DNA from: Propionibacteriaceae bacterium
GTDB lineage: Bacteria > Actinomycetota > Actinomycetes > Propionibacteriales > Propionibacteriaceae
Assembly: GCA_031256725.1 (NCBI GenBank)
Contig: JAIRQE010000006.1
Location: forward strand, 120,001-152,000
Length of the DNA stretch: 32,000 nucleotides
Reading direction: 5' to 3'
Position 1 is the first letter of the stretch, and every line of letters starts with the position of its first letter. Shown piece by piece: positions 1,492 to 16,859 of the stretch. The position numbers were made by a program, and so were the translations under genes. Below the pieces are notes generated by a model. That model worked only from the letters and a program-made list of their open reading frames with translations, was not told the origin of the DNA and made no database searches.

Positions 1492-2808
1492 ATGTTAGTG
1501 AACTTTACAGTGGAGAATTGGCGATCATTCCGTGACCCCACTTCTTTGTCTATGATTGCCACACGTGAGAAGAACCATGGACGTCGCCTAACCAAAATAG
1601 TGAAGCATAAAATGCGACTGCTGCCAGTTGCGGCGATTTATGGGGGAAACGCTTCTGGGAAGACTGGCCTGATCGAGGCGATGTCTTTTGCTCAGATGAT
1701 CATTCTTCGATCAGAAAAATCAGATCGCCCTATCCCCGCAGAGCCGTTTCTGCTCAACTCTGAGTCTAAAGAAAGTCCTAGTCGCTTTTCTTTCACTTTT
1801 TTGGCCGATGATCGACTATTCGAGTACGAGTTCTCCTGCACACTGAGAACGATCATTTACGAACAACTAACTGAATTTCTTGGGGCACGTAAGCGGGTTT
1901 TCTTTGTTCGCAATAACGATAAAGTGATCATAGATACTACATTGCCCGACGCAGAGCGTCTTCAGTTTGCCTTTTTGGGAACAAATCAGAATCAGCTATT
2001 CCTCAACAACGCAGTGTCACAGAAAATCGCAACCTTCGATGTAGCCTATGACTGGTTCGAAGCACTTCACATCATTGGCCCACATTCGCATTTTGGCCCT
2101 TGCAGGCATTTCTTCAGCAGTGATCATGGTTTTGCCGAACAAGTCAATGACATGCTGAGACAATTGGACACTGGAATCACTGGGTTAGGTAGTAGGAGAG
2201 TATCTCCTGAAGATGTTGGTATGTCTGAGGTTTTCCGGAAAAGAATGGAAAGAGACCTGAGAGAGGGTGAATCCAGATCGATATACAGACCTCTTGATCA
2301 GGCTCCTTTGATCGCCTCTCGGGAAGACGGACAATTGTGTCTATTTAAACAGGTCTCGCATCATTTGGCTGATGATGGATCAATTGCAGCCTTCGATCTT
2401 GATGACGAATCTGAAGGATCCAGGCGTCTTATTGATCTATTACCACCCTTTCTTGATCTAGTTGATCCCGAGACACCCACGGTCCTCATCATTGATGAAA
2501 TTGATCGCAGTTTACATACTTTACTTTTGCGCCGACTACTCGAATGGTACCTAGAATCACGTGCTTCAGAAAGCAGAACTCAGTTAGTGTTCACGACGCA
2601 CGATGTGCTACTCATGGATCAGGTCCTTTTTCGTCGAGATGAAATGTGGGTTACTGAACGTGAAATTGATGGTTCGTCTAAGTTGTTCGCCTTGAGTGAT
2701 TATGAGGGGATTCGGTACGACAAAGATATTCGCAAGAGCTACCTTCAAGGACGACTGGGTGGCATTCCGAGAATCCTCCTAAGCGCTGAATCGAGGTTCA
2801 ATGAGTAG
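1492..2808 (+). CDS. AAA_15/AAA_21-type (ABC/OLD-like) ATPase, AbiLi-like
   Basis: Walker A is YGGNASGKTG (about 1642-1668), Walker B is LIIDEIDRSLH, and a downstream FTTHD motif is present. The ATG at 1492 follows GGAGGG; the track start at 1480 is a TTG. The gene overlaps the next gene by 8 nt. Confidence 0.85.
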   Translation: MLVNFTVENWRSFRDPTSLSMIATREKNHGRRLTKIVKHKMRLLPVAAIYGGNASGKTGLIEAMSFAQMIILRSEKSDRPIPAEPFLLNSESKESPSRFSFTFLADDRLFEYEFSCTLRTIIYEQLTEFLGARKRVFFVRNNDKVIIDTTLPDAERLQFAFLGTNQNQLFLNNAVSQKIATFDVAYDWFEALHIIGPHSHFGPCRHFFSSDHGFAEQVNDMLRQLDTGITGLGSRRVSPEDVGMSEVFRKRMERDLREGESRSIYRPLDQAPLIASREDGQLCLFKQVSHHLADDGSIAAFDLDDESEGSRRLIDLLPPFLDLVDPETPTVLIIDEIDRSLHTLLLRRLLEWYLESRASESRTQLVFTTHDVLLMDQVLFRRDEMWVTEREIDGSSKLFALSDYEGIRYDKDIRKSYLQGRLGGIPRILLSAESRFNE

Positions 2809-3382
2809 TCCACGTAGACCACACCGTACTCAGGGTCGCCTTCCGTATCGCAAGAGATTTGTCGTGGCTACAGAAGGGATAAAGACTGAACGTGAATACC
2901 TGGCTTTAATTAATAGGGAACGAATAACCGTGAACTGGGTACGTCCGGACAGCAGTAACCCGATGGGAGTACTCAAAGCCATGAAACGCCATATTGAAAA
3001 GGAACCACTACGTCGTGGCGATGAAGCCTGGATTGTCATTGATAGAGACCACTGGGCAGAAACTGAGCTCAATGATGTTGCGTCTTGGGCGAACAGTCAA
3101 CCGAACCATGGAATGGCCCTAAGCAATCCCAAGTTTGAGTACTGGATGCTCCTTCACTTTGAGGATGCAAAAGGTGTGTCCACCTCCTACGAAATCAAGA
3201 ATAAACTGAGGCAATACCTACCAAGCTATGTAAAACAAGTGGCACCAAGCGACTTTAGTGAAGAAAACATTGCAAGAGCTATTGTCAGAGCCAAATCTCA
3301 AGATGACAACACACATGATTGGCCTAAGAGCCCTGGGCAAACAACTGTTTACAGACTAATTGAACGAATGCTTGAGGCTTGA
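2801..3382 (+). CDS. RloB-like (Toprim-related) protein, AbiLii-like partner
   Basis: It carries the RloB-family hallmarks FVVATEGIKTEREY, WIVIDRDHW and SNPKFEYWMLLHF. Its ATG at 2801 overlaps the ATPase stop (2806-2808), which implies translational coupling. Confidence 0.85.
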   Translation: MSSPRRPHRTQGRLPYRKRFVVATEGIKTEREYLALINRERITVNWVRPDSSNPMGVLKAMKRHIEKEPLRRGDEAWIVIDRDHWAETELNDVASWANSQPNHGMALSNPKFEYWMLLHFEDAKGVSTSYEIKNKLRQYLPSYVKQVAPSDFSEENIARAIVRAKSQDDNTHDWPKSPGQTTVYRLIERMLEA

Positions 3383-3560: not shown

Positions 3561-3591
3561 AATTAGCACTCTCGTCGCTAGAGTGCTAATT
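3561..3591. promoter_or_regulatory. Perfect 12-bp inverted repeat (AATTAGCACTCT-N7-AGAGTGCTAATT): operator or terminator
   Basis: Read directly from the sequence. It lies 56 nt upstream of the AAA+ gene start and 179 nt downstream of the RloB stop. It overlaps a possible promoter (TTAGCA, 18 nt, TAATTT) and could equally form a 12-bp RNA stem followed by UUUGGG. Confidence 0.45.
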
Positions 3592-3646: not shown

Positions 3647-4918
3647 ATGACGACGCTGGGTGCTATGTTGAACCAAGCCTGGGCAATGCAAGCGTTGGGA
3701 GGGACAATGCCTACTAATAACTTCGTTGGCACCCCTGCTAAGGTCATACATGTTGACGTGGCAAGCAACACTGCTCATTTGAAGTACCTGAACGGCAATA
3801 TTGGTCGCATCTCTAATCTCCGTAATTTGGTAGATCTTTCTCCTGGGGAGGTAATTCTTCAGAGCGACACCAATTGGGAACTAGCCCCAAAGGAATCCTG
3901 GTATGAGGCGACTTCAATCGCAATCGTGAGAAAGGTCCTTGATGATCTTTCTGTGCTAGTCGACCATGGTTTGAACCTCACATCCATCCCAAACCGGGCG
4001 TGCATCCCAGTAGCGATCAACAATACTATTGAGTTTACTGACACCGAGGGCCTGATTCGTGTGATCTCAGAGGAACCGATCACTAGTGGAATCCTTAACC
4101 GGGAAACCAATACGACGGAATTCATCCGGAAAGAGTACCTCGTTGAGTTGGAAGAAGGAGGACTCTCTTTCTCTGACTTTGGAGGCTACCCAGAGGTCAA
4201 GTCACGCGCACTCGAATTGATCAAGACCCAGCTAGATCATCGTGAGGCCCTTGATGCAATTGGAGCAAAACCCGTGAAAGGAATCCTTTTCACTGGCCCT
4301 CCTGGAACTGGGAAGACCCACCTCGCGAGGATCATTGCGCACGAATCCAAAGCAGACTTCTTCCTCGTGAGCGGTCCAGCCATCGTCAGCAAATGGCTAG
4401 GAGACTCTGAAGGAACTCTGCGAGCGCTTTTCGAGGCCGCAACAGGGTCCGAATCTGGCAGGGCCATTATCTTCTTCGATGAGATTGACAGCATAGCTGA
4501 GAACCGAGCCGGCGACACTCACGAATCTTCCAGACGGCTTGTGGCCCAGTTGCTGGCGCTCATGGACGGTTTCGAAGAAGCCCCAAAGGGTGTTATTGTG
4601 ATAGCGGCAACCAACCGGGCTGACGCCCTCGACCCAGCCCTCACCAGGCCAGGTAGATTCGACTGGGAAATTGAGTTTGGTATGCCAAGTTTGAATGACC
4701 GTCTGGAGATACTCCAAGTCGGAGCGAGTCAGGTCTCAACCATAGGCAATCTACCACTAACCGAAGTAGCCGCGTTGACAGAAGGCTGGTCAGCTGCGGA
4801 GCTTAGCTCCATGTGGACCGAGGCAGCTCTAGTTGCAGCAAAAGATGAGCGAAAAGCCATTGCGGGGGAAGACCTTGCTTGGGCTTTTGAGAGGGTACAA
4901 AGCAGACCAAGGCAATAG
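3647..4918 (+). CDS. Classical-clade AAA+ ATPase (FtsH/proteasomal-ATPase-like single AAA module) with a novel beta-rich N-terminal region of about 200 aa
   Basis: Walker A GPPGTGKT (4295-4318). Pore loop 1 K-W-L-G (4391-4402). Walker B IIFFDEID. Second region of homology ATNRADALDPALTRPGRFD. Lid helix bundle LTEGWSAAELSSMWTEAAL. Residues 1-200 show two stretches patterned like the OB/beta-barrel interdomains of PAN/Mpa/ARC (for example VIHVDVASNTAHLKYLNG...LSPGEVIL). Confidence 0.9.
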   Translation: MTTLGAMLNQAWAMQALGGTMPTNNFVGTPAKVIHVDVASNTAHLKYLNGNIGRISNLRNLVDLSPGEVILQSDTNWELAPKESWYEATSIAIVRKVLDDLSVLVDHGLNLTSIPNRACIPVAINNTIEFTDTEGLIRVISEEPITSGILNRETNTTEFIRKEYLVELEEGGLSFSDFGGYPEVKSRALELIKTQLDHREALDAIGAKPVKGILFTGPPGTGKTHLARIIAHESKADFFLVSGPAIVSKWLGDSEGTLRALFEAATGSESGRAIIFFDEIDSIAENRAGDTHESSRRLVAQLLALMDGFEEAPKGVIVIAATNRADALDPALTRPGRFDWEIEFGMPSLNDRLEILQVGASQVSTIGNLPLTEVAALTEGWSAAELSSMWTEAALVAAKDERKAIAGEDLAWAFERVQSRPRQ

Positions 4919-4932
4919 AGAAGTAGGAGCCC

Positions 4933-6255
4933 ATGATGGGATTACGCGAAAAATGGGAAAAACACAAGAAGAAAAAACAGCAGATAGATTCACTTAACAG
5001 CAACCCAGAACCGGTGTTACGAGATTTTGTCTATCTAGATGAGCAGAGTCTACAAAGCCTACTGTCCTCAACTAGTGGCGAAATTGCAGACCATCGATCA
5101 GAAAGCACTTCGGAGGGCATCAACAGTGAATTTGGAGCCTCGATAGGAGCAGGGAGTCCCTCTCCCCTGAAAGCAGAGGTTTCCTCTCGGTTTCAAGCCA
5201 CAGATACACGAATGGTCCAAACATCCCGCCGAGCGACAGTCCAGTCTTGGTTTCGCGATTTTCATAAAATCGCTAATCTCAAACTCTTGGATCTGGGGAA
5301 GGCTAGAGTCGAGAAGAAGCCTGATTTGTCTGAAGTGAAGGAGACATCACTCCTTGCATCAACATCACAACTTAGGCGTGGAGAACTCATTGAGCTACGA
5401 GTGAGGCTCGCTCCAGATCCAGTGTATTCATTGAGCGCAGTGATGTCGGAATATGCATACATCGCTCAAGCGAATCCGGACATGTTTGGGGCTAGTGATA
5501 AGAAAGTACTATCTCAACTCCTTCAGGTAAACACTATTATGGAACGGCTTCTAGTCGGTCTTATCCCAATCAAGGCTACTGCAATTGACTATTCGGTGTA
5601 TGAGGCCAATGGTGAGCTATGCATAATTCATAATGATCTTATTCAGAATGCATCAACGGCAATGAGTCAACTAAAGATCACTGGGGTAACTGATCACTCC
5701 TCTTATTGGAAAGACCTACGTCGCGTCCTCTTCGCAGATTCCGAGTTCACATTACTTGGGAGAATTAGCCAAAGTGGAATCAAGTCCACCTGGACACCTG
5801 TGAAACTTGCGGATGTTTTCGGAATCGTAAAACCCGACCTTGTACATCAATTCCAGGAGTTGTCCCAAATGACAAACATTGACTTGGGAATAAAGGATTC
5901 AACACTCATGTTGGCTTTGCGCTCCTATGCCCAAACGCTTCTTGCTCAACAATCCATCACTTTGGGGGAGGTGCAGCAACAGCTTCTTGAGGAGAGAATA
6001 TGTGGTCTCCGGAGTGAAGGAGTTCCAATTTCTTCACAATGCAAGGCATTTAGTGTGGTTCGCGAACTCTTGCAGGATTGGTTTGACATTGAAATCGATC
6101 CTTCGGATGATGTCGCTTTGCGTGAACAAGCTCGCAATGAAAATGGACTGTCGCTCTTTGGTACACAAACTCAATCTAGCTCACCAATCGAGAAGACTCA
6201 GCCAAATAAGAAAGAGCACCTACTCGAAGTGGAAATCATCGCGATTTACTGGTAG
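4933..6255 (+). CDS. Uncharacterised 440-aa partner of the AAA+ ATPase (possibly DUF6414/DolA-like)
   Basis: The ATG lies 14 nt after the ATPase stop and follows AGGAG. The ORF is long and clean. The N-terminus is Lys-rich, followed by FVYLDEQSLQSLLSS and a Ser/Gly-rich segment. There are no TM helices and I recognise no catalytic motif. The C-terminus ends ...VEIIAIYW. Confidence 0.75.
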   Translation: MMGLREKWEKHKKKKQQIDSLNSNPEPVLRDFVYLDEQSLQSLLSSTSGEIADHRSESTSEGINSEFGASIGAGSPSPLKAEVSSRFQATDTRMVQTSRRATVQSWFRDFHKIANLKLLDLGKARVEKKPDLSEVKETSLLASTSQLRRGELIELRVRLAPDPVYSLSAVMSEYAYIAQANPDMFGASDKKVLSQLLQVNTIMERLLVGLIPIKATAIDYSVYEANGELCIIHNDLIQNASTAMSQLKITGVTDHSSYWKDLRRVLFADSEFTLLGRISQSGIKSTWTPVKLADVFGIVKPDLVHQFQELSQMTNIDLGIKDSTLMLALRSYAQTLLAQQSITLGEVQQQLLEERICGLRSEGVPISSQCKAFSVVRELLQDWFDIEIDPSDDVALREQARNENGLSLFGTQTQSSSPIEKTQPNKKEHLLEVEIIAIYW

Positions 6256-6372: not shown

Positions 6373-7029
6373 GTGAAAAGGAATGTTTCTAGAACCACCT
6401 CGGGACGCAAGCATGTTTTCAATTTCATCATGGGTGTTTTTACAGGCGCAATAGCTCTTATTCTTGGAACTCTTGCTCTTCAAGCTCTTTTCCCACAAGA
6501 TAGCCCCACTTCTTTACCGCGAGAGACAGTAACTGTAACTCATACACCCTCATCAATCAGCACACCCACGAATCCATCCCAGGCACCAACTGAAGCTGAG
6601 ACTGGAGGTTCTACAAGTCTCTTTGAAAGACCCTTAATAGATAGTAAGCGCTACAATGAATACCACCAAGGTGGTACCCTTTTCCAAGACTCATATGGAA
6701 ATAGATACAATGAATGCCACTCTTTCAGCGCTGGGAACTACACAACCTCGTATGCCGTCTATAACTTAGATCGAAATTATACCTATTTTAATGCTTTGAT
6801 TGTTGGGAGCAGCGAGATTCGCTCTGAAAACACTTTCGTAATTCGAGTACTCCTGGACGAGAAGCAAATCTTCATCAAAGATGATTTCACTAAAAGAACT
6901 GAGCCTTTTCCGCTTTCTATCCCAATTACCGATGCGCTCCGACTCACTGTCGAAGTGTCCCTAGTAAACGATTACTGGCAAAGCGACGAAGGGTCCACCA
7001 TTTACTTAGTTAACGCAACGGTCTCATAG
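6373..7029 (+). CDS. Single-pass membrane-anchored protein with a Pro/Thr/Ser linker and a C-terminal NPCBM-like beta-sandwich
   Basis: A basic N-tail is followed by a hydrophobic helix FNFIMGVFTGAIALILGTLALQALF (about 6421-6495) and a PT-rich linker. The C-terminal pattern AVYNLDRNYTYFNALIVG...FVIRVLLDEKQIF...LRLTVEV resembles NPCBM/discoidin-like domains. The start is uncertain (GTG at 6373 or ATG at 6430). Confidence 0.6.
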   Translation: MKRNVSRTTSGRKHVFNFIMGVFTGAIALILGTLALQALFPQDSPTSLPRETVTVTHTPSSISTPTNPSQAPTEAETGGSTSLFERPLIDSKRYNEYHQGGTLFQDSYGNRYNECHSFSAGNYTTSYAVYNLDRNYTYFNALIVGSSEIRSENTFVIRVLLDEKQIFIKDDFTKRTEPFPLSIPITDALRLTVEVSLVNDYWQSDEGSTIYLVNATVS

Positions 7030-7371: not shown

Positions 7372-7752
7372 GGCTCTTCACAATCGAGAGTGTAGATAGG
7401 GTCTGAATCCTCCGGTTTCGAGTAGGGATCGGGCGATGTAGTGGGTGAGGTTTCTGAAGCCGAGGGCGATACCGCCGAGGTGTTCGAGTCTTCCGTTGAT
7501 AGCTTCGGTGGGGCCGTTCGAGGTGTGGGGATGATGGAAGTAGGCGAGGATGTCACCCATGCGTCGTTTCAGGGTCCGGCCAAGACGTTTGATTTCCACG
7601 TATCCTGGGGGTATCCCGTAACAGATGGACATGATGAGGTGTTTCAATCGGGTTCGTCCACGGGTGCGATCCGGGTCTCGGTAGGCAGCGACGATACGCT
7701 GGTAGACACTCTGATAGTATCCAAGAAGCGTCAGCGTGGATCGGTGACTACA
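7372..7752 (-). mobile_element. ISL3-family insertion sequence remnant (3' fragment of the transposase plus terminal inverted repeat)
   Basis: Minus-strand translation gives ...LAYFHHPHTSNGPTEAINGRLEHLGGIALGFRNLTHYIARSLLETGGFRP, a typical ISL3 transposase C-terminus. An upstream in-frame extension ...YYQSVYQRIVAAYRDPDRTRGRTRLKHLI stops at an in-frame TAG (7753-7755). An ISL3-type terminal repeat GGCTCTTCACAATCG begins at 7372. The first two-thirds or so of the transposase is missing. Confidence 0.75.
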
Positions 7753-7793: not shown

Positions 7794-9986
7794 TCACAAC
7801 GACTCTCCTGATGTGTTCCCAAGCCCTTCAAATGTCACATCGTCGAGTTCGTGTGCAGACTCTGGGGCCACTTCATCGACCACTTCCGCATCGACCTCTC
7901 CCATGCTCTGAAGATATTCATTTCGTAGGTCGTATAGACGTTTTCCTGAACTTTGAATGATCCAGAACCACCAACCATTGACTGTGCGTCCCTTGATCGC
8001 TCTGCCTGCTCCTGATGGGGTCTCAAATACGTCAGAACCAATGTAGATGCGTCCGTCTCTTGATACAACAGCCAAGGTCTCAGATGCTTCCCGTCCTACA
8101 GGTTGTGAACTGGGTATGAGAACTGCTCCTGCTTCAAGCCATCCGTCTGATATCAACTGAGCCAAGTCTACGGAGACGGTACTCTGATCACTCCCGGCTG
8201 CCTCAAGTCCTACGTGGCCGACAGGAACAGGCCACACTTCCAGAATCTGCGAAATCAACAACGCCGTGCGGTCTGTAATGGTTTGTTCGTCCCATCCTTC
8301 TTCACCCATCACCATGGCTTCATTTGTTAGCAGTACGTCGCTGATTGACTTGAAATGATCTCGCTTAGTTTGCCATGTACCATTCGAGACTTTGCTGTTT
8401 AGGGCCTGCGTAACAAGTGTGAGGTTTCCAATCTCCTGAACAACACGATCTCGTCGAGCCTCTTCTTCGGGTGAAAGATCATCTTGCCAGTTTCTGCGCC
8501 ACTTCTGAGGCATCAAATGCTCCAGCGTTCCTTTGTTCCTGGTGATTGGACCCATTGCCAGACGGTGTCCTGTGGGGTAACCACGTTGTGCATCTTCAAG
8601 GGCTTCGAACACCATACGTAGTCTTGCCCTGACATATTTCCAGTACGCAGCTGTACCTGTGAGTGCGGTTCTAACTTCCGTGTCGCCTGGCCAGTAGCCA
8701 ACGGGAGTGTGATTGCTAGCTAGGAATGCTTCAACAGCGCCAGATAGATTCTCGAAGGAGTTGTCGCTCAAATGACGCAGAAGATCCATAATGAAACGGT
8801 TGGACCCTTGAGAAGAGGCTTTCACCAACGCTCGTCGAACAAACCAACTCTCCAAGATTCCAAGAACGCGCTCGCGTTCCTGTTCGGGTATTGACTCCTG
8901 TTCCGGTTCATCCAACCAGATCAGGAGTGGCCGAGCAATTTCGGAATTGAGTGTGCCGACGCGGTAACTGAAGAGTTCGATTCGTGACAGAACTCCATCA
9001 TCTCTGTTGGATGATTCGATGACTGAACGATATCTGTCTGCGGCGGTCCTGATATGAGGTAGCAGTGCTCCAATGTCTTTAGCCACAGTGTTCACATAAT
9101 GCTTGAACTGGGTAAACACTTCGCGTGTCGGGAACTCCTTCAACGTTCGGGCACTTAACCATTGCGAGAGAAAGAGAGAGGCTCGGGAATGCTTGATTCT
9201 GCCGGATGTTATCTCGACTTCCCACCAGGGAGTCTCGAATTGTGCCCAATACTTCAAGTATGCATTTTCGGCATCATGCTCATCGACTTGTTGGAAGACG
9301 AAGTTCTTAATCAGGTCAGCTGCCGACAAAGGCGTTCCTCGCGCATTAAGAGTCTCGAAGATGGCTTGCGCATCTTCTGTGGAATCCAGACCAATTGACA
9401 CGATTTCAATTCGATCACTAATGGCAGCAACTAGCACCTTTGCTCGCGTTTCGGTATCACCTTCGTCGAACCACGAACTGATGACGTTCCTGAAGAAGCG
9501 ATATGCGTCATTGAGACGACAGGGAAGTGGGTTGCCTGATGCAGACATAACCGAGACAAAACCTTCGCGATCCCGATTCGTAGGCCACAGTTTGAATCGA
9601 TCCTCTTCAGTTTCGCGGTTGTCCACCGGATTTTCAATCAGTGGACGAATGCGTCCAACGAGCCCAATCAAGTCTCTTCGTTCTAGCTCATCCTTAAGGG
9701 CAGCGAGCAACAGTTGAAGTGTCGTCAATCTCTGTTGCCCGTCAATGACATTCCAAGTAGGAAGGCTTCCTAATGCAATTTGTGTTTGCTGGATAACGAT
9801 TGCACCCAGGAAATGGGTAGCTGCACTGTTGTGTTCAGAGATGACTTCAATCAGGCGAACGATATCCTGCCACAAGGGTTCCCACTGAGCTTCTTTCGAC
9901 CACACATAGGGTCGTTGAAAGAGCGGTACCACTAGTTTTTTCGGATTGAAGAATATGTCTTGGGGTTTTATGACATCAGTCTTCAC
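7794..9986 (-). CDS. GmrSD-family DUF262 + DUF1524 (HNH-like) enzyme with a C-terminal RAMA-like domain; putative type IV (modification-dependent) restriction enzyme
   Basis: The DUF262 motifs are PLFQRPYVWSKEAQWEPLWQDI and DGQQRLTTL (about 9721-9749). The DUF1524 motifs are GTLEHLMPQKW (about 8509-8531) and GNLTLVTQALNSKVSNGTW. The C-terminal GRIYIGSDVFETPSGAGRAIKGRTVNGWWFWI...LYDLRNEY matches the RAMA/DUF4357 pattern. Confidence 0.9.
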   Translation of the reverse strand: MKTDVIKPQDIFFNPKKLVVPLFQRPYVWSKEAQWEPLWQDIVRLIEVISEHNSAATHFLGAIVIQQTQIALGSLPTWNVIDGQQRLTTLQLLLAALKDELERRDLIGLVGRIRPLIENPVDNRETEEDRFKLWPTNRDREGFVSVMSASGNPLPCRLNDAYRFFRNVISSWFDEGDTETRAKVLVAAISDRIEIVSIGLDSTEDAQAIFETLNARGTPLSAADLIKNFVFQQVDEHDAENAYLKYWAQFETPWWEVEITSGRIKHSRASLFLSQWLSARTLKEFPTREVFTQFKHYVNTVAKDIGALLPHIRTAADRYRSVIESSNRDDGVLSRIELFSYRVGTLNSEIARPLLIWLDEPEQESIPEQERERVLGILESWFVRRALVKASSQGSNRFIMDLLRHLSDNSFENLSGAVEAFLASNHTPVGYWPGDTEVRTALTGTAAYWKYVRARLRMVFEALEDAQRGYPTGHRLAMGPITRNKGTLEHLMPQKWRRNWQDDLSPEEEARRDRVVQEIGNLTLVTQALNSKVSNGTWQTKRDHFKSISDVLLTNEAMVMGEEGWDEQTITDRTALLISQILEVWPVPVGHVGLEAAGSDQSTVSVDLAQLISDGWLEAGAVLIPSSQPVGREASETLAVVSRDGRIYIGSDVFETPSGAGRAIKGRTVNGWWFWIIQSSGKRLYDLRNEYLQSMGEVDAEVVDEVAPESAHELDDVTFEGLGNTSGESL

Positions 9987-10389: not shown

Positions 10390-11091
10390 ATGCCCGAATC
10401 AATCATCGTACTGACTCAACGATACCTACAACTGAAATCCATAATCGGCGATGAATACGCTAAGGAGCGCCCTGTCCCGATCCTGGGAAGAGGAAGAAAG
10501 CGGAGGGATGCCCGCAAGGATGCAGCCGAACGTCTTGGAGCCGGGGTATCGTACGCTACTTTTGAGAAGGTGGCCTGGCTGTTGGAAGTGTCGGGAAATA
10601 CGAAGCGACCCTTGGGGATGCAGGCAGCCTGGGACGCTCTGGCAGCCATCAGGCAAGGTGGCACCGTCGATTGGCCGTACAAGACTGCTGTGTCTGTGGC
10701 GCTGATCGAGGAACTGGATCACCTCTCGAAGAACAGCGATCCCGAGGTGAGGAGTATTGCTGAGCGTGAGTATCTTCGCGTGAGACGGTTTCAGAAAGAC
10801 TGGCGGACTGACAAACTGGAGTTCGAGGTCCGACAGGCAGTGCAGCGGGTGCAGACCTTCCGAAACATCCTTCACTATGACTACCGTGAGGACGAAGTAA
10901 CCCATTACTTCCTTTTCCAAAGCCATATCGCTGACGTAAACCCAAAACCCCTTGTCGTACGGTGGAGCACAATTTGCACCACCGTACGACAAGGAATAAC
11001 TCTCTTGCGCCATGGTCATAAGGTTGGGCGGAAAGTACGTTCCAGAATGTCGGCGGTGGCTGGGTTCACCATTTCGCTTCGGCGGATGTAA
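10390..11091 (+). CDS. Hypothetical island protein (possible HTH/ParB-like DNA-binding region)
   Basis: The ATG at 10390 follows AAGGAAAGGA. The protein is charged and helical, with GVSYATFEKVAWLLE resembling an HTH. The track start at 10219 adds an implausible Cys-rich extension. The 3' end overlaps the integrase 3' end by 76 nt (convergent), so the true end or the reality of the gene is uncertain. Confidence 0.4.
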   Translation: MPESIIVLTQRYLQLKSIIGDEYAKERPVPILGRGRKRRDARKDAAERLGAGVSYATFEKVAWLLEVSGNTKRPLGMQAAWDALAAIRQGGTVDWPYKTAVSVALIEELDHLSKNSDPEVRSIAEREYLRVRRFQKDWRTDKLEFEVRQAVQRVQTFRNILHYDYREDEVTHYFLFQSHIADVNPKPLVVRWSTICTTVRQGITLLRHGHKVGRKVRSRMSAVAGFTISLRRM

Positions 11092-12197
11092 TGCTGGACT
11101 GTGATCTTAGGATCAGTGTGACCAAGAAGTTCAGCAGCGAGATCAATAGAGGCGGTTTCACTGATCGCGGTGGCCACGGTTCGACGGAACATGTGTGGGG
11201 TGACACCTTCGATCCCTGCCAGGTTGAGCACATGCCTGAGTTGTCGGCGTACGTTATTGGTTGTCAAGGGCGTACCATTTCGCGAACAGAAAACCAACGC
11301 ATCTGGGGAGATGTCAGTCATGGCCTCTAGGCGCGCCCTAATAGCTTGGGCCGTGAAACTTGGGATCGCGATAACTCGCCGTGACTTGGCTGTCTTCGGA
11401 TGGTCCTGGCGATATGGGGCGAGCCCTCTCGGGGTGACGATGGTGCCTCGAATGGCAATGGACGGTGTAGGACTTTCAACATCCACGTCTCGCCTTCGGA
11501 TAGCCAAGGCCTCGCCAATACGAGCCGAGGTACCCAGCATGACCTCGATGATGGCTGAGAGTTGGCCGTCTGGTCGTGGACCGCTGGGGACGATCCCGGT
11601 TTCCCAGAATCGTACAGCGATCCTGACTGAGTTCACTTCTTCAGGGGTCATGGCATCCGGTGTGTGCGCCGGTTTGTGGAGTCGGGCGATCCCATCCATG
11701 GGGTTTCTGGGAATGATTTCGTGGCGCACGGCCAACCCAAACGCCAACCGAAGAACGACCTTAGCTTGTCGAGCCTTGTTGTAGGAGACCTTCAGCAGGT
11801 TCTTGATGAGCATGTCGCATCGTGCGACACCAATCTCTCTTAAGGTCAGGTTCTCGAAGGCTGGCAGTACAAGTTGCCGCATGTGATACCGGTAGCGATC
11901 TCGGGTCTGTTGGGCAAGGCGATTCTCTAACTCGATGTCCTCCAACCAATACTCAACCAAATCACCAAAGGATGAATCCGGGGTGAGACCTGAAACAGGT
12001 GGTTGGAACAGGGTTCGCTGGGCAAGCTTGACTTTGAGGTTCTGCTCCGCTTGGCGTTTGCTCGTACCAACAGCTTGAACAAGACGACTCTTGCCATCCC
12101 AGTCGCGATACCTGGTGCGGGCTTCGACCCTGCCTTGAGTGGTGCGAAGGAAGGTGACCTCACCGAAGGTTCCAATGGGGATTCTAGGTCTGGTCAT
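11016..12197 (-). CDS. int: Tyrosine recombinase / phage-type integrase
   Basis: The C-terminal catalytic region is HMFRRTVATAI...LGHTDPKITVQHYIRR. The N-terminal arm-binding-like domain is IPIGTFGEVTF...RTRYRDWDGKSR. It lies next to a tRNA 3' end. Confidence 0.95.
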   Translation of the reverse strand: MTRPRIPIGTFGEVTFLRTTQGRVEARTRYRDWDGKSRLVQAVGTSKRQAEQNLKVKLAQRTLFQPPVSGLTPDSSFGDLVEYWLEDIELENRLAQQTRDRYRYHMRQLVLPAFENLTLREIGVARCDMLIKNLLKVSYNKARQAKVVLRLAFGLAVRHEIIPRNPMDGIARLHKPAHTPDAMTPEEVNSVRIAVRFWETGIVPSGPRPDGQLSAIIEVMLGTSARIGEALAIRRRDVDVESPTPSIAIRGTIVTPRGLAPYRQDHPKTAKSRRVIAIPSFTAQAIRARLEAMTDISPDALVFCSRNGTPLTTNNVRRQLRHVLNLAGIEGVTPHMFRRTVATAISETASIDLAAELLGHTDPKITVQHYIRRSEMVNPATADILERTFRPTL

Positions 12198-12418: not shown

Positions 12419-12668
12419 GTACGACAGGTGCGACAGCATTCCCTGGACCAATACAGATCGCTGCCACTGACATGGACCATTCCTGGATGCTGCGACTTCG
12501 CGCAGCATGACACAGGGCTCTTCAAACACCAAAACAGGCTTCCAAAAGCGATTCAGACAAGGTGAAACGAACTCAAAATGATGAGTTTTTGATGGGTAGA
12601 TCAAATCGGAGACTCCTCTCAATGAAGAGGAAACTGGCCCTGACTAGCCAAAACAGTCCGACATTTTG

Positions 12669-12742
<74 letters not shown>

Positions 12743-13618: not shown

Positions 13619-16600
13619 GTGGCTTCCTCATCCTCGATCTCCTCGTTGGTTGCTGCGGCCATACATCTGTTCTCCGGTAACTCTGGCGGTGTAACAACAT
13701 CACTCATCAACGCGGGATGGCCGACAATGCAGGAGGCATTCAGGCCAACGCTCGAAGCGAAGCGTTTGAGGCAAGACGTCAGAAAAGCCATCCACGAGTG
13801 GGCCGAAGGCGACAATGTCGCGAATGCTGATATTGATACGGGCCTAGAGATCGCTAAGGCTTCTATCGAGCAGTTTGGGTTTTCCAAGAAAGAACTGGAA
13901 GAGTGTGGCTTGAATGCGGAGAACGCCGCCAGCCGAGTGATCCTAGCCGCCTCAAGTCGAGAGCCTTCCTGGTCTCTGCAAAGGGCTGAGTTCAACGTTG
14001 CTGAACACGCCATTCGCGCAACATATGCAGCACTAATCAGAGCCTGCCTTTCAGAGCCCGGCTATCTCGAGGCGAGATTTCGTGAAATCGAGTCCGAGCT
14101 TGCGCTTCTTCGGGTGGCCTTCGCGCGTTTGTCGAGAATCCCAGCGCAGGTTAACCCGAACAATTCCGATATCATGCGAGCGATACGGATCTATCTCAAT
14201 GCCCGCATCATCGACTGGAATGCCCTCCCAGACTGGCTTGGTGGTCGTTCCCTCTCGTCATTGGCGCGACCATTGGTACTACGGAGCCCATTCGAACCCG
14301 GATCGCCTGACAAGAATGAGATTGATGCGCTTGAGGGTGCCCAGATGATGGTTGTGGTGGGCGAACCGGGATCGGGAAAGACCTGGCTCTCCAAGAGGTA
14401 TGCGCTCGTGGCGGCCAGGAAAGCAATAGCTGCTCTTGATGAGGGCAAACCACTCAGCGAGGTGGAGATCCCGATCTGGACCACATGGGCAGCCTGGAAA
14501 GACACTCCGGGGCCAACCCGCGAGAGTCTCGTACGAGCGTCATTCGATCGAGTCATGGCAGTGGGTAGCCTGACGGATGAAGACCAGGGTTTCGACAACC
14601 TGATTCAGCGCGTACTCAGTCAAGCAGGCAAAGCCCTGGTGTTGGTGGACTCCCTTGACGAAGGGCCCATCGGGAATGACCGTGACGCCCTTGCCACGTC
14701 GCTTACGACGCTGCCTGGACAGAAGTGGCGTGTAGTGATCACGAGCAGGCCTGGAGCATGGAGCGCGACAAACCTCAACAGATCTGACCGCGCAGCGCCG
14801 ATCCGCATGACCGAAATCCAACCACTCGCATGGCCAGATGATGTCGAGGTCTTCGTAGGTGATTGGTTCGGCCGAGATCGTGACAACGCGACAAAACTTT
14901 TGCATCAAATACGCGCTCGCGATGATCTACAACGGGTCTCTGTCAGCCCAATGCTGCTTACTTTCCTCTGCTTGCTCGGCCCAACATCCGCCGCGTTTCC
15001 GCCAAAGCGGTTCGACCTGTTTGAAGAAGTAGCCAGGCGCATTCTGAGCGCGCCGTGGCGACGAGTCGAGACTTCCACCGACGTACAATCATGTTTGGCG
15101 CAACTCACACAATGGGCATGGAGCATCGCTGCTTCGGCTCAACCGACTGCCACCACTAACTGCCACCACTATCGGACTACGTACATGGAAAGATAGATTT
15201 GCATGTGACGATGATCCGCCTAGTGGGCTTCGTGCTGTCGACAATATTGCGCCTCTTCTATCTGATGGATTTGGGCGACCAAGAGAACGCCAATTCATTC
15301 ACCGGCTGGTCCTTGAACACTTCATTGCTCGTTATCTTACCGGACTCCCGGTCAACGACGTCTACAGGTATCTTCTTCCCCATTTGTGGTTCGATGAGGA
15401 TTGGGAGTACCTCATTTCTACGGTCATTGTGTCCCATCGTGATAATGATGCACTTCTCTCTCGCCTACTAGACAAGGCACGGTCGTCTTGCCATGACAGA
15501 GCCCATATGGAGGCTGGGTCACAGATCGAAGATATGCTCATCGGACTAGCGGACCAGTCGCAACCGACCGACTGGTCTGCGCCAAACTGTGAGCGAATCA
15601 GGCGAGCGCTACTGGGGCCAGCGACCGGGAGTTGGCGCGCAACTACTGCCAGCGCAAGAATCTGGATCTCGCAGACTTCCCAAGAAACAGCGGCAAATGG
15701 TATCACCCGAGAGCTTGAATCGGCAAATCCACGCCAGATTCCCGATCTCGTGGATCGGCTCCTCCGTCTGAATCCCAATTTTTCCCAGCGTGAACATGCT
15801 GTCAACATTGTTGAAAAGGGCTTGGTGTCTTCATCATCAGTGGAAGATACGTCGCGGATGCTGAGGCAACTCATCGCGTTAGGATCGACAGAAGCGGAAG
15901 TCCGCAAGGTCATTTTGAGCGCGTTTGCAGGAAATGTCGCGTGCAAGACTCCGGAGATCTTGACGACGGAGCTGCTGCGGCTCCGGCCAACCGTGCAAGA
16001 GCGTCAGCATTGCGCACAGAGCCTCACCAGACTGCTTCTTACGAGCCGTGATCCCTACACGCCGCTTAGTGCGGTGGATGGCTTGCTACGGCTGCCTGCC
16101 AACGATCGAGAGCGCCTTCTGGTAATCAACCAGGTACAGAGGTTCGTTGTGCAGAATGAACCACCTGAAGGATGGGACATGCTCTGTATTGTGCGCCCTC
16201 TGTTTCGCTTCGCCGACACCGATGCAAAGCGTTTGAAGGCTTTGGATGATATCGTTACCGGGCGTCAAAAGGCAGCATGGTGGCCATGCCCCGGCCTTTC
16301 GGAGGCGCTGGTGCGTCTGGCCGACACCGAGGAACGCCGCCGAATCGCGATTGGCGGGATTGTTTCGGCTCTCGGAGAGGATAGTAGAGGCGCTGAGTTG
16401 CGTCAGATGGATGCCTTGCTTGTCTTGGCTGACAGTCAGAAGTGGCGCGATTACGCGGTTGTTCTGATTGCTGAGTCAGCAGGTGGCGACCGTCCGAAGC
16501 TCGATCTAGCCAAGGCGATGCTGGCCCCTCTAGACACACGGGAGTGGCGAGATACTGTCCTTCGTGCATTGTCTGCGTACCATGTGCCGGTAAATGGGTT

Positions 16601-16859
16601 AATAGATACCTTGGTCAATAACTTCGACAGTAGCCAGTGGCGCCAGATGATCAGGGATTTGATTCTCCTGGTCCTGCCGACAACGGGAGAGAGACGCGAA
16701 TTGGTGGACAAGCTCCTTTCGCTGGACCCCAGCCCTGAGCACCTGCGCCGGGCGGTAGGCATCCTCACCAATCTGGCGAACTCACATGACATTGCCCCGA
16801 GCTTGCGTCGCATGATGACGACGCAAGAGTGGCTGGGCTGGATTACCAGCGCCGGGTGA
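13619..16859 (+). pseudogene. NACHT/STAND NTPase (bacterial NLR-like) with C-terminal helical repeats, split by a frameshift into ORFs 13619-15196 and about 15207-16859
   Basis: Walker A is VVVGEPGSGKTW (about 14351-14386) and Walker B is LVLVDSLDEG (about 14638-14667). The downstream frame is open from well upstream of the track start at 15384. It encodes ...RQFIHRLVLEHFIARYL, the conserved post-NACHT motif. Removing one copy of the 13-bp duplication at 15146-15171 fuses both parts in frame (about 1076 aa). Confidence 0.85.
15146..15171 (+). repeat. Perfect 13-bp tandem duplication (ACTGCCACCACTA x2) causing the NACHT frameshift
   Basis: Read directly: aaccg ACTGCCACCACTA ACTGCCACCACTA tcgg. 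Confidence 0.95.

Follow-up and report, generated by a model that had tools for sequence, protein, structure and literature searches.

The two-gene system Dodola is said to have been described by Millman and colleagues in 2022, with a DUF6414 protein (DolA) and a ClpB-like ATPase (DolB) as its components. The combination of a DUF6414 protein with a ClpB-related ATPase is also how recent studies define it (bioRxiv 10.1101/2024.10.26.620412; PMC11514479), and a survey finds it present in Euryarchaeota (bioRxiv 10.1101/2024.10.26.620412). In B. subtilis and S. thermophilus, Dodola gives protection from phages, and the ATPase of the S. thermophilus system matches Clp ATP-binding subunits (PMC11514479). 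Its mechanism is still given as unknown in reviews to 2026. Here, we describe two adjacent genes at 3647–6255 of a 32,000-nucleotide stretch of DNA from a Propionibacteriaceae bacterium (assembly GCA_031256725.1, contig JAIRQE010000006.1, positions 120,001 to 152,000; hereafter the window), which encode an AAA+ ATPase and a DUF6414 protein. In our judgement, this pair is probably, with considerable reserve, a self-contained, translationally coupled, Dodola-related anti-phage module, in which a proteasome-type AAA replaces the ClpB-like DolB.

The locus shares with Dodola two adjacent, co-oriented genes, a PF19952 (DUF6414) protein, a single-chain AAA+ protein with an N-terminal domain before the P-loop, and defence-island contexts. 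It differs from Dodola in its ATPase, a classical AAA protein (PF00004 and AAA_lid_3; Rpt/PAN/Cdc48-like) that the PADLOC DolB model does not recognise. The DUF6414 protein, at ~440 amino acids (aa), departs from the 283-position Pfam profile by long insertions. The hosts are Actinomycetota, Alphaproteobacteria and haloarchaea, whereas the validated Dodola systems come from Bacillota.

The ATPase and its DUF6414 partner

The features of the pair are given below, with ATPase residues numbered from M1 at 3647.

3647–4918, forward strand: AAA+ ATPase gene, longest open reading frame (ORF) 423 aa, PF00004 and AAA_lid_3
3731–4069, forward strand: N-terminal all-beta domain, residues 29–141, two consecutive five-strand units (AlphaFold2)
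4295–4318, forward strand: Walker A GPPGTGKT, residues 217–224 (homologue alignment)
4391–4402, forward strand: pore loop 1, K249-W250-L251-G252 (aromatic-hydrophobic-Gly), nearly invariant in the family
4472–4489, forward strand: Walker B FFDEID, D278 and E279 (homologue alignment)
4607–4663, forward strand: second region of homology, sensor-1 N323 and arginine fingers R334/R337 (ATNR...LDPALTRPGRFD)
4925–4929, forward strand: Shine-Dalgarno sequence AGGAG, 3 nucleotides (nt) before ATG 4933 and 6 nt before ATG 4936
4933–6255, forward strand: DUF6414 (PF19952, DolA-family) gene, 440 aa, match spanning the whole Pfam profile
5020–5040, forward strand: N-terminal strand motif R30-x-F32-x-Y34-L35-D36, invariant
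5083–5199, forward strand: Ser/Gly/Thr-rich low-confidence segment, residues 51–89, predicted local distance difference test (pLDDT) below 50
5707–5733, forward strand: core motif W259-K-D261-L-R263-R-V-L-F267, conserved
6217–6252, forward strand: C-terminal beta strand ending A437-I-Y439-W440, invariant, at the extreme C-terminus

Pfam AAA (PF00004) matches residues 213–345 of the ATPase (1.5e-41), in addition to AAA_lid_3. Walker A, the pore loop, Walker B, N323, R334 and R337 are all invariant or nearly so in an alignment of 37 homologues. The original prediction, made from the letters of this DNA and a list of its ORFs, had proposed a classical-clade AAA module with Walker A and B, arginine fingers and an intact K-W-L-G pore loop, and this is what the profile and the alignment show. 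Its Walker B residues, D279/E280, were one position off (D278/E279), and its start codon at 3647 is probably 20 codons too early. The true start is probably M21 (ATG 3707), giving a protein of 403 aa, because GGGAGGG lies at 3697–3703, the NCBI call (P0121) is 403 aa long, homologues of ~408 aa align from there, and residues 1–23 are disordered in the model.

The AlphaFold2 model of the ATPase (pLDDT 82) has five strands at residues 29–80 and five at 90–141 and contains no N-terminal coiled coil, in line with the tandem beta N-domain that had been predicted. W77, P81, N116 and G135 of this domain are invariant in the same alignment; the domain alone has no Pfam match and no PDB sequence match. 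The best Foldseek matches of the ATPase are 26S Rpt subunits and PAN (E ~1e-27), with alignments of 345–430 columns, a length that implies coverage of the OB region. The second beta unit aligns with the OB domain of PAN/Rpt, and the NCBIfam Pan2 match begins at residue 91. The AAA module is ~45% identical to Cdc48 D1 (PDB phmmer, 1.5e-102). The NCBIfam scores are 215 bits for CDC48 (TIGR01243; cutoff 803), 215 for PAN (cutoff 500), 213 for FtsH (cutoff 600), 116 for Mpa (cutoff 505) and 101.7 for IteA (IteA_antiphage, NF042959; cutoff 510). The protein ends in RPRQ, with no HbYX or GQYL motif, and its homologues in RPRR with a variable tail. As modelled, the ATPase is a single-module, classical-clade AAA protein whose closest structures are proteasomal Rpt/PAN.

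The partner matches PF19952 over residues 29–439, which cover profile positions 1–283 of 283 (1.6e-54; 186 bits against a 25-bit cutoff). By this match it is a full-length member of DUF6414, the family of Dodola DolA. The claim that the partner is an orphan, and the pair undescribed unless it is Dodola, had to be given up: a DUF6414 profile search of the whole library gives 776 clusters (50% identity) at E <= 1e-3, 502 of them at E <= 1e-30. The relatives are all annotated PF19952, with lengths of about 420–460 aa. The best 150 of the 776 clusters are all long forms; a profile built from peripheral members only gave 92 matches, of which the complete ones are about 400–440 aa long and none carries a Bacillota name. 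A 'short' DUF6414 protein of Natrinema (321 aa) was a candidate link to short forms but was rejected: its annotation is truncated, P0379 being 428 aa long.

The partner begins with a variable basic tail (residues 1–28), followed by the RxFxYLD strand. This motif is kept from Actinomycetota to haloarchaea, where it reads LREFxYLD, and the terminal A-[IVM]-Y-W is likewise found in haloarchaeal DUF6414 proteins. Positions invariant among 55 sequences are R30-x-F-x-Y-L-D36, S42, L43, S46, R149, G150, E154, W259, D261, R263, R277, W287, R397 and A437-x-Y439-W440. The protein has no transmembrane (TM) segment, as had been noted (maximum Kyte-Doolittle mean over 19 residues, 1.14). In the AlphaFold2 model (pLDDT 78; predicted template modelling score 0.62), a basic N-terminal helix is followed by the invariant strand, the Ser/Gly-rich segment 51–89, an alpha/beta core, a helical C-terminal domain and a confident terminal strand. 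The model has no Foldseek match at E <= 1e-3 in PDB or BFVD, and DUF6414 has no PDB sequence or profile match. The terminal I-Y-W (6244–6252) was considered as an HbYX-type motif for docking to the 20S proteasome and judged unlikely to be one, being equally invariant in Alphaproteobacteria and modelled as a confident core strand. Alphaproteobacteria are not known to have a 20S proteasome. Despite its formal resemblance to HbYX, this terminus is probably structural.

The two genes are closely linked, as originally described. The ATPase stop codon (TAG 4916–4918) is followed after a 14-nt gap, which holds the ribosome-binding AGGAG, by ATG 4933 on the same strand. The same arrangement is found elsewhere. 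The loci retrieved via the DUF6414 protein come from Actinomycetota, Alpha- and Betaproteobacteria, Chloroflexota and Ignavibacteria. In all 86 of 86, the gene directly upstream on the same strand encodes a homologue of the window ATPase (40–69% identical, N-domain included unless the locus is cut off). All five plasmids inspected share this architecture, four of them haloarchaeal (Halobacterium, Halorientalis, Natrinema and Salinigranum) and one from Corynebacterium marinum. From the ATPase stop to the nearest in-frame DUF6414 start, the distance is −17 to +10 nt in 71 loci, with a 4-nt overlap in 32. These junctions suggest translational coupling of both genes. Pairwise distances of the two proteins are correlated (r = 0.86; Mantel p = 0.001), and DUF6414 diverges faster (mean p-distance 0.64 vs 0.51 for the ATPase).

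Relatives occur in at least 138 of 185,579 species genomes; the scan was pattern-based, so the count is a minimum. A tblastn search of plasmids found them in Actinomycetota, Sphingomonadales and haloarchaea only, and the pair was not found in GenBank phages, IMG/VR or PHROGs. The patchy distribution and the absence from phages fit a horizontally mobile, host-side system. The DUF6414 gene of Halorientalis (L089, 1323–2570) is annotated as two consecutive ORFs, and the DUF6414 protein of Halobacterium PHS3 (L087, 4848–6050) lacks the conserved terminal YW; these copies may be frameshifted or decaying.

Relation to Dodola and other AAA-based systems

The PADLOC DolB model PDLC03838 (375 positions) matches the window ATPase with 11 bits (E 0.044), at Walker A only. 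With this model the four haloarchaeal ATPases score 12–20 bits, and the ATPase of Corynebacterium marinum is not matched at E <= 1. The same ATPases reach 100–124 bits with IetA models and 45–59 bits with TRIP13 (for the window ATPase, ~120 bits at best with IetA and 51–53 with TRIP13). Had the DolB model been one of the classical clade, its scores would be far higher, which argues that the ATPase is not DolB; the low score also agrees with the Clp subunit matches described for the Dodola ATPase of S. thermophilus. No tested DUF6414 protein, from the window, Corynebacterium or haloarchaea, matched any PADLOC model. The proposed link to Dodola therefore survives in one half. The Pfam search that had been suggested places DUF6414 on the partner and PF00004 on the ATPase, whereas the ATPase fails the DolB profile and PADLOC calls neither protein Dodola, in a library whose possession of a DolA model is unconfirmed. 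Overall, the observation behind the original prediction is confirmed and its interpretation partly supported.

The pair could also be an ordinary Dodola system, if 'ClpB-like' loosely names one and the same ATPase family and DefenseFinder-type profiles already file the pair under Dodola. DUF6414 is indeed the defining Pfam family of DolA, and the layout of the PADLOC DolB model is similar, with Walker A near position 170 of 375, an N-domain and one AAA module. Haloarchaeal AAA+DUF6414 pairs exist, and the survey places Dodola in Euryarchaeota. We nevertheless regard this reading as improbable, given a DolB hidden Markov model match that is weak and confined to the P-loop against the much higher IetA and TRIP13 scores, the Clp matches of the S. 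thermophilus ATPase (PMC11514479), and the silence of every PADLOC model on the DUF6414 proteins tested.

Compared with known unfoldases, the ATPase is most similar in plan to PAN, Rpt1-6 and Mpa/ARC. All have an OB-like beta domain ahead of a single classical AAA module, with an Ar-Phi-Gly pore loop and with arginine fingers in the second region of homology. Unlike them, it lacks the N-terminal coiled coil and a C-terminal HbYX or GQYL, and it carries an extra N-terminal beta unit. It is also not linked to 20S genes, and it occurs in Alphaproteobacteria. Cdc48, p97 and VAT have tandem D1-D2 modules and a double-psi-barrel N-domain, in contrast to the single AAA module here.

Two defence systems built on AAA proteins invite comparison. 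IetAS, reportedly described by Gao and colleagues in 2020, is said to combine the AAA ATPase IetA with the subtilisin-like protease IetS. Both systems have two genes around a classical AAA protein, and IetA is the best PADLOC match of the ATPase (~120 bits). However, this match is limited to the AAA module, the NCBIfam score is far below cutoff, and the partner is DUF6414 instead of a protease; no protease gene adjoins the pair in the window. TRIP13/Pch2, found in CBASS as Cap6 with Cap7, is a single-module AAA+ protein with an N-domain that remodels a small HORMA partner via its N-terminal tail. It offers a mechanistic analogy for an unfoldase that switches the conformation of its partner, and ClpC with its adaptor MecA is a further analogy for remodelling of DUF6414. 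However, the TRIP13 match is weak (~53 bits), DUF6414 has no match to a HORMA-like fold, and no HORMA or CD-NTase match was found among the scanned window neighbours.

The island and the surroundings of related pairs

Other features of the window that bear on the context of the pair are as follows.

178–966: Fic protein, PADLOC PDC-S04 candidate (3.6e-47)
1480–2808: AbiLi, AAA_21 ATPase (PADLOC 8.7e-82)
2801–3382: AbiLii, RloB (PADLOC 1.9e-23)
3561–3591, no strand: 12-nt perfect inverted repeat AATTAGCACTCT-N7-AGAGTGCTAATT, within the 265-nt gap that precedes the ATPase gene
6373–7029: ORF of 218 aa, TM helix at the N-terminus (Kyte-Doolittle 2.27), NPCBM/NEW2 domain at the C-terminus (1.1e-07)
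7794–9986, reverse strand: GmrSD_N/GmrSD_C/RAMA enzyme (PADLOC 1.5e-92)
11016–12197, reverse strand: tyrosine integrase (Pfam)
12668–12742, reverse strand: tRNA-Pro (ARAGORN)

Judged by its gene content, the window is itself a defence island. Its GC content is 44–52% until ~10 kb and 53–61% past 14 kb. The low-GC island holds the ATPase/DUF6414 pair between the AbiL pair and the GmrSD enzyme, with the integrase and tRNA-Pro adjoining, which agrees with the predicted position between an ATPase/RloB pair and a GmrSD-like enzyme in a tRNA-integrated island. The 3' segment of tRNA-Pro, sought as an att repeat, is present once only in the window with no second copy, so the far end of the island would lie beyond the left edge. 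To the right of tRNA-Pro, a NACHT protein is followed by sugar-metabolism genes. Past the tRNA and outside the low-GC island, 13619–16859 encodes a 525-aa NACHT/STAND-type NTPase and a 491-aa ORF without a Pfam match, which may form another pair of defence-type genes beside the integration site. At the left end, a 71-aa ORF without a family match overlaps and precedes the Fic/DOC gene (9–966 together) and may be an antitoxin-like small partner.

The inverted repeat at 3561–3591 could serve as an operator or could form the terminator hairpin of the abiL operon that lies upstream. A consensus scan for promoters and terminators found sites no more numerous than in shuffled sequence, and none above chance around 3561–3591. 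Downstream of the pair, the 6373–7029 gene had been included in an extended unit reaching to 7030. As a third component it was rejected, since none of the 86 related loci carries it; it accompanies the pair in this organism only (also on Logan contig L092), and its protein has no PADLOC, NCBIfam or PHROG match. Between this gene and the GmrSD gene, 7378–7647 on the reverse strand encodes an 89-aa remnant, whose match to an ISL3-family transposase is confined to the C-terminal end (DDE_Tnp_ISL3, profile positions 185–239 of 240). This is a decayed insertion sequence element, which suggests piecemeal assembly of the island.

The flanks of related pairs were scanned with PADLOC and Pfam in 80 species loci, taking the nearest two ORFs per side (154 ORFs of at least 200 aa). 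Recurrent matches are type I restriction R subunits (8), type III and type IIG restriction-modification (R-M), GajA and GajB (3 each), OLD/AAA_21 ATPases, TIR effectors, PDC candidates and integrases. Single loci have a reverse transcriptase, a 1446-aa NACHT-like ATPase, or HEPN/HNH genes. Surroundings rich in defence genes had been foreseen, and the R-M, Gabija, OLD and TIR flanks bear this out, as a description made without a matched background. In eight loci (L016, L022, L024, L032, L050, L054, L055 and L064), a same-strand gene of ~1000 aa ends within tens of bases of the ATPase start. These upstream genes are found in Leucobacter, Klenkia, Nocardioides, Cellulosimicrobium and Glutamicibacter, sometimes with genes of 240–530 aa further upstream. 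They are probably type I R-M genes, because type I restriction R subunits are the commonest flanking family in the scan, whose matches were pooled over flanks and not resolved per protein. Linkage with R-M would thus recur among these loci.

The same surroundings could be those of a toxin-antitoxin-like addiction or stabilisation module of mobile elements, with a toxic DUF6414 protein continuously neutralised by the unfoldase, or the reverse. Plasmids and megaplasmids commonly carry the pair, the 25.9-kb pCmarinum2 among them, and integrases and transposases lie next to it; its genes are tightly coupled, and some plasmid copies have a DUF6414 gene that is split or has a different end (Halorientalis L089 and Halobacterium L087). 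However, both proteins are far larger than typical toxin-antitoxin components, an association with mobile elements is equally seen in defence systems, and published Dodola gives phage resistance. We consider this reading unlikely to be correct, with the reservation that many abortive-infection systems are mechanistically toxin-antitoxin-like, so that the two readings are not exclusive. That the pair is a stand-alone PAN/Mpa-like chaperone with an adaptor, serving housekeeping or stress protein quality control unrelated to phages, is highly improbable. In its favour are the similarity of the AAA module, which is greatest to Cdc48/PAN/FtsH, the use of proteasomal ATPases by the host phylum, and the metabolic genes beside the pair in some loci. 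Against it, relatives were counted in only 138 of 185,579 species genomes, with a distribution that indicates horizontal transfer among Actinomycetota, Alphaproteobacteria and haloarchaea; the two genes belong to a low-GC island beside a tRNA gene; the ATPase, which has neither a coiled coil nor HbYX, stays below the NCBIfam cutoffs for PAN, Mpa, FtsH and CDC48; and no proteasome or protease gene is linked to the pair in the loci inspected.

Several points weigh against the reading that we favour, a Dodola-related anti-phage module with a proteasome-type motor. Neither protein is recognised as Dodola by PADLOC, and the DUF6414 partner has no PADLOC match even at E <= 10, with the presence of a DolA model in that library unconfirmed. 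What ties the pair to Dodola is the shared Pfam family, in a comparison that included no canonical DolA/DolB control. The enrichment of defence genes is descriptive and lacks a matched background, and some relatives lie among housekeeping or metabolic genes, as in Corynebacterium matruchotii (locus L005). DUF6414 has no recognisable catalytic motif or fold, which makes an effector role speculative. We infer the anti-phage role from genomic context, and the formation and direction of action of an ATPase-DUF6414 complex are likewise suppositions.

Possible mode of action and implications

If the pair is such a module, the ATPase would form a hexameric ring, with an N-domain collar that binds DUF6414, and the faster-evolving DUF6414 protein would be the specificity or effector subunit. 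ATP-driven threading by the K-W-L-G loops might remodel DUF6414 from its flexible basic N-terminal tail, in front of the RxFxYLD strand, and so switch it on or off. Alternatively, threading might unfold a phage protein presented by DUF6414. Since no protease is encoded in the module, the output would be remodelling and not degradation.

A broader proposal, which we offer tentatively as possible but doubtful, is that DUF6414 defines an immune class across Bacteria and Archaea that needs a hexameric translocase. Its motor would be interchangeable, Clp/Hsp100-like in the Dodola of Bacillota and proteasome-type here. Such a class would work without a protease, either threading the DUF6414 N-terminal tail to switch a new-fold effector or unfolding a phage protein captured by DUF6414.

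The pair belongs to a large syntenic sister family, in bacteria and haloarchaea, that keeps DUF6414 and swaps the AAA+ clade, which gives the question of the Dodola mechanism a testable shape. If validated DolB proteins belong to the Clp clade, DUF6414 partners with two AAA+ clades, which would argue that protein translocation as such, and not a ClpB-specific chemistry, is the required activity. The family is missed by current PADLOC models, and censuses of defence systems in Actinomycetota, Alphaproteobacteria and haloarchaea may under-count accordingly. With no match among solved or predicted viral structures, DUF6414 is a target for structure determination. If the broader proposal is true, these proteins would represent a protease-independent 'unfoldase immunity', a mechanism undescribed for any defence system.

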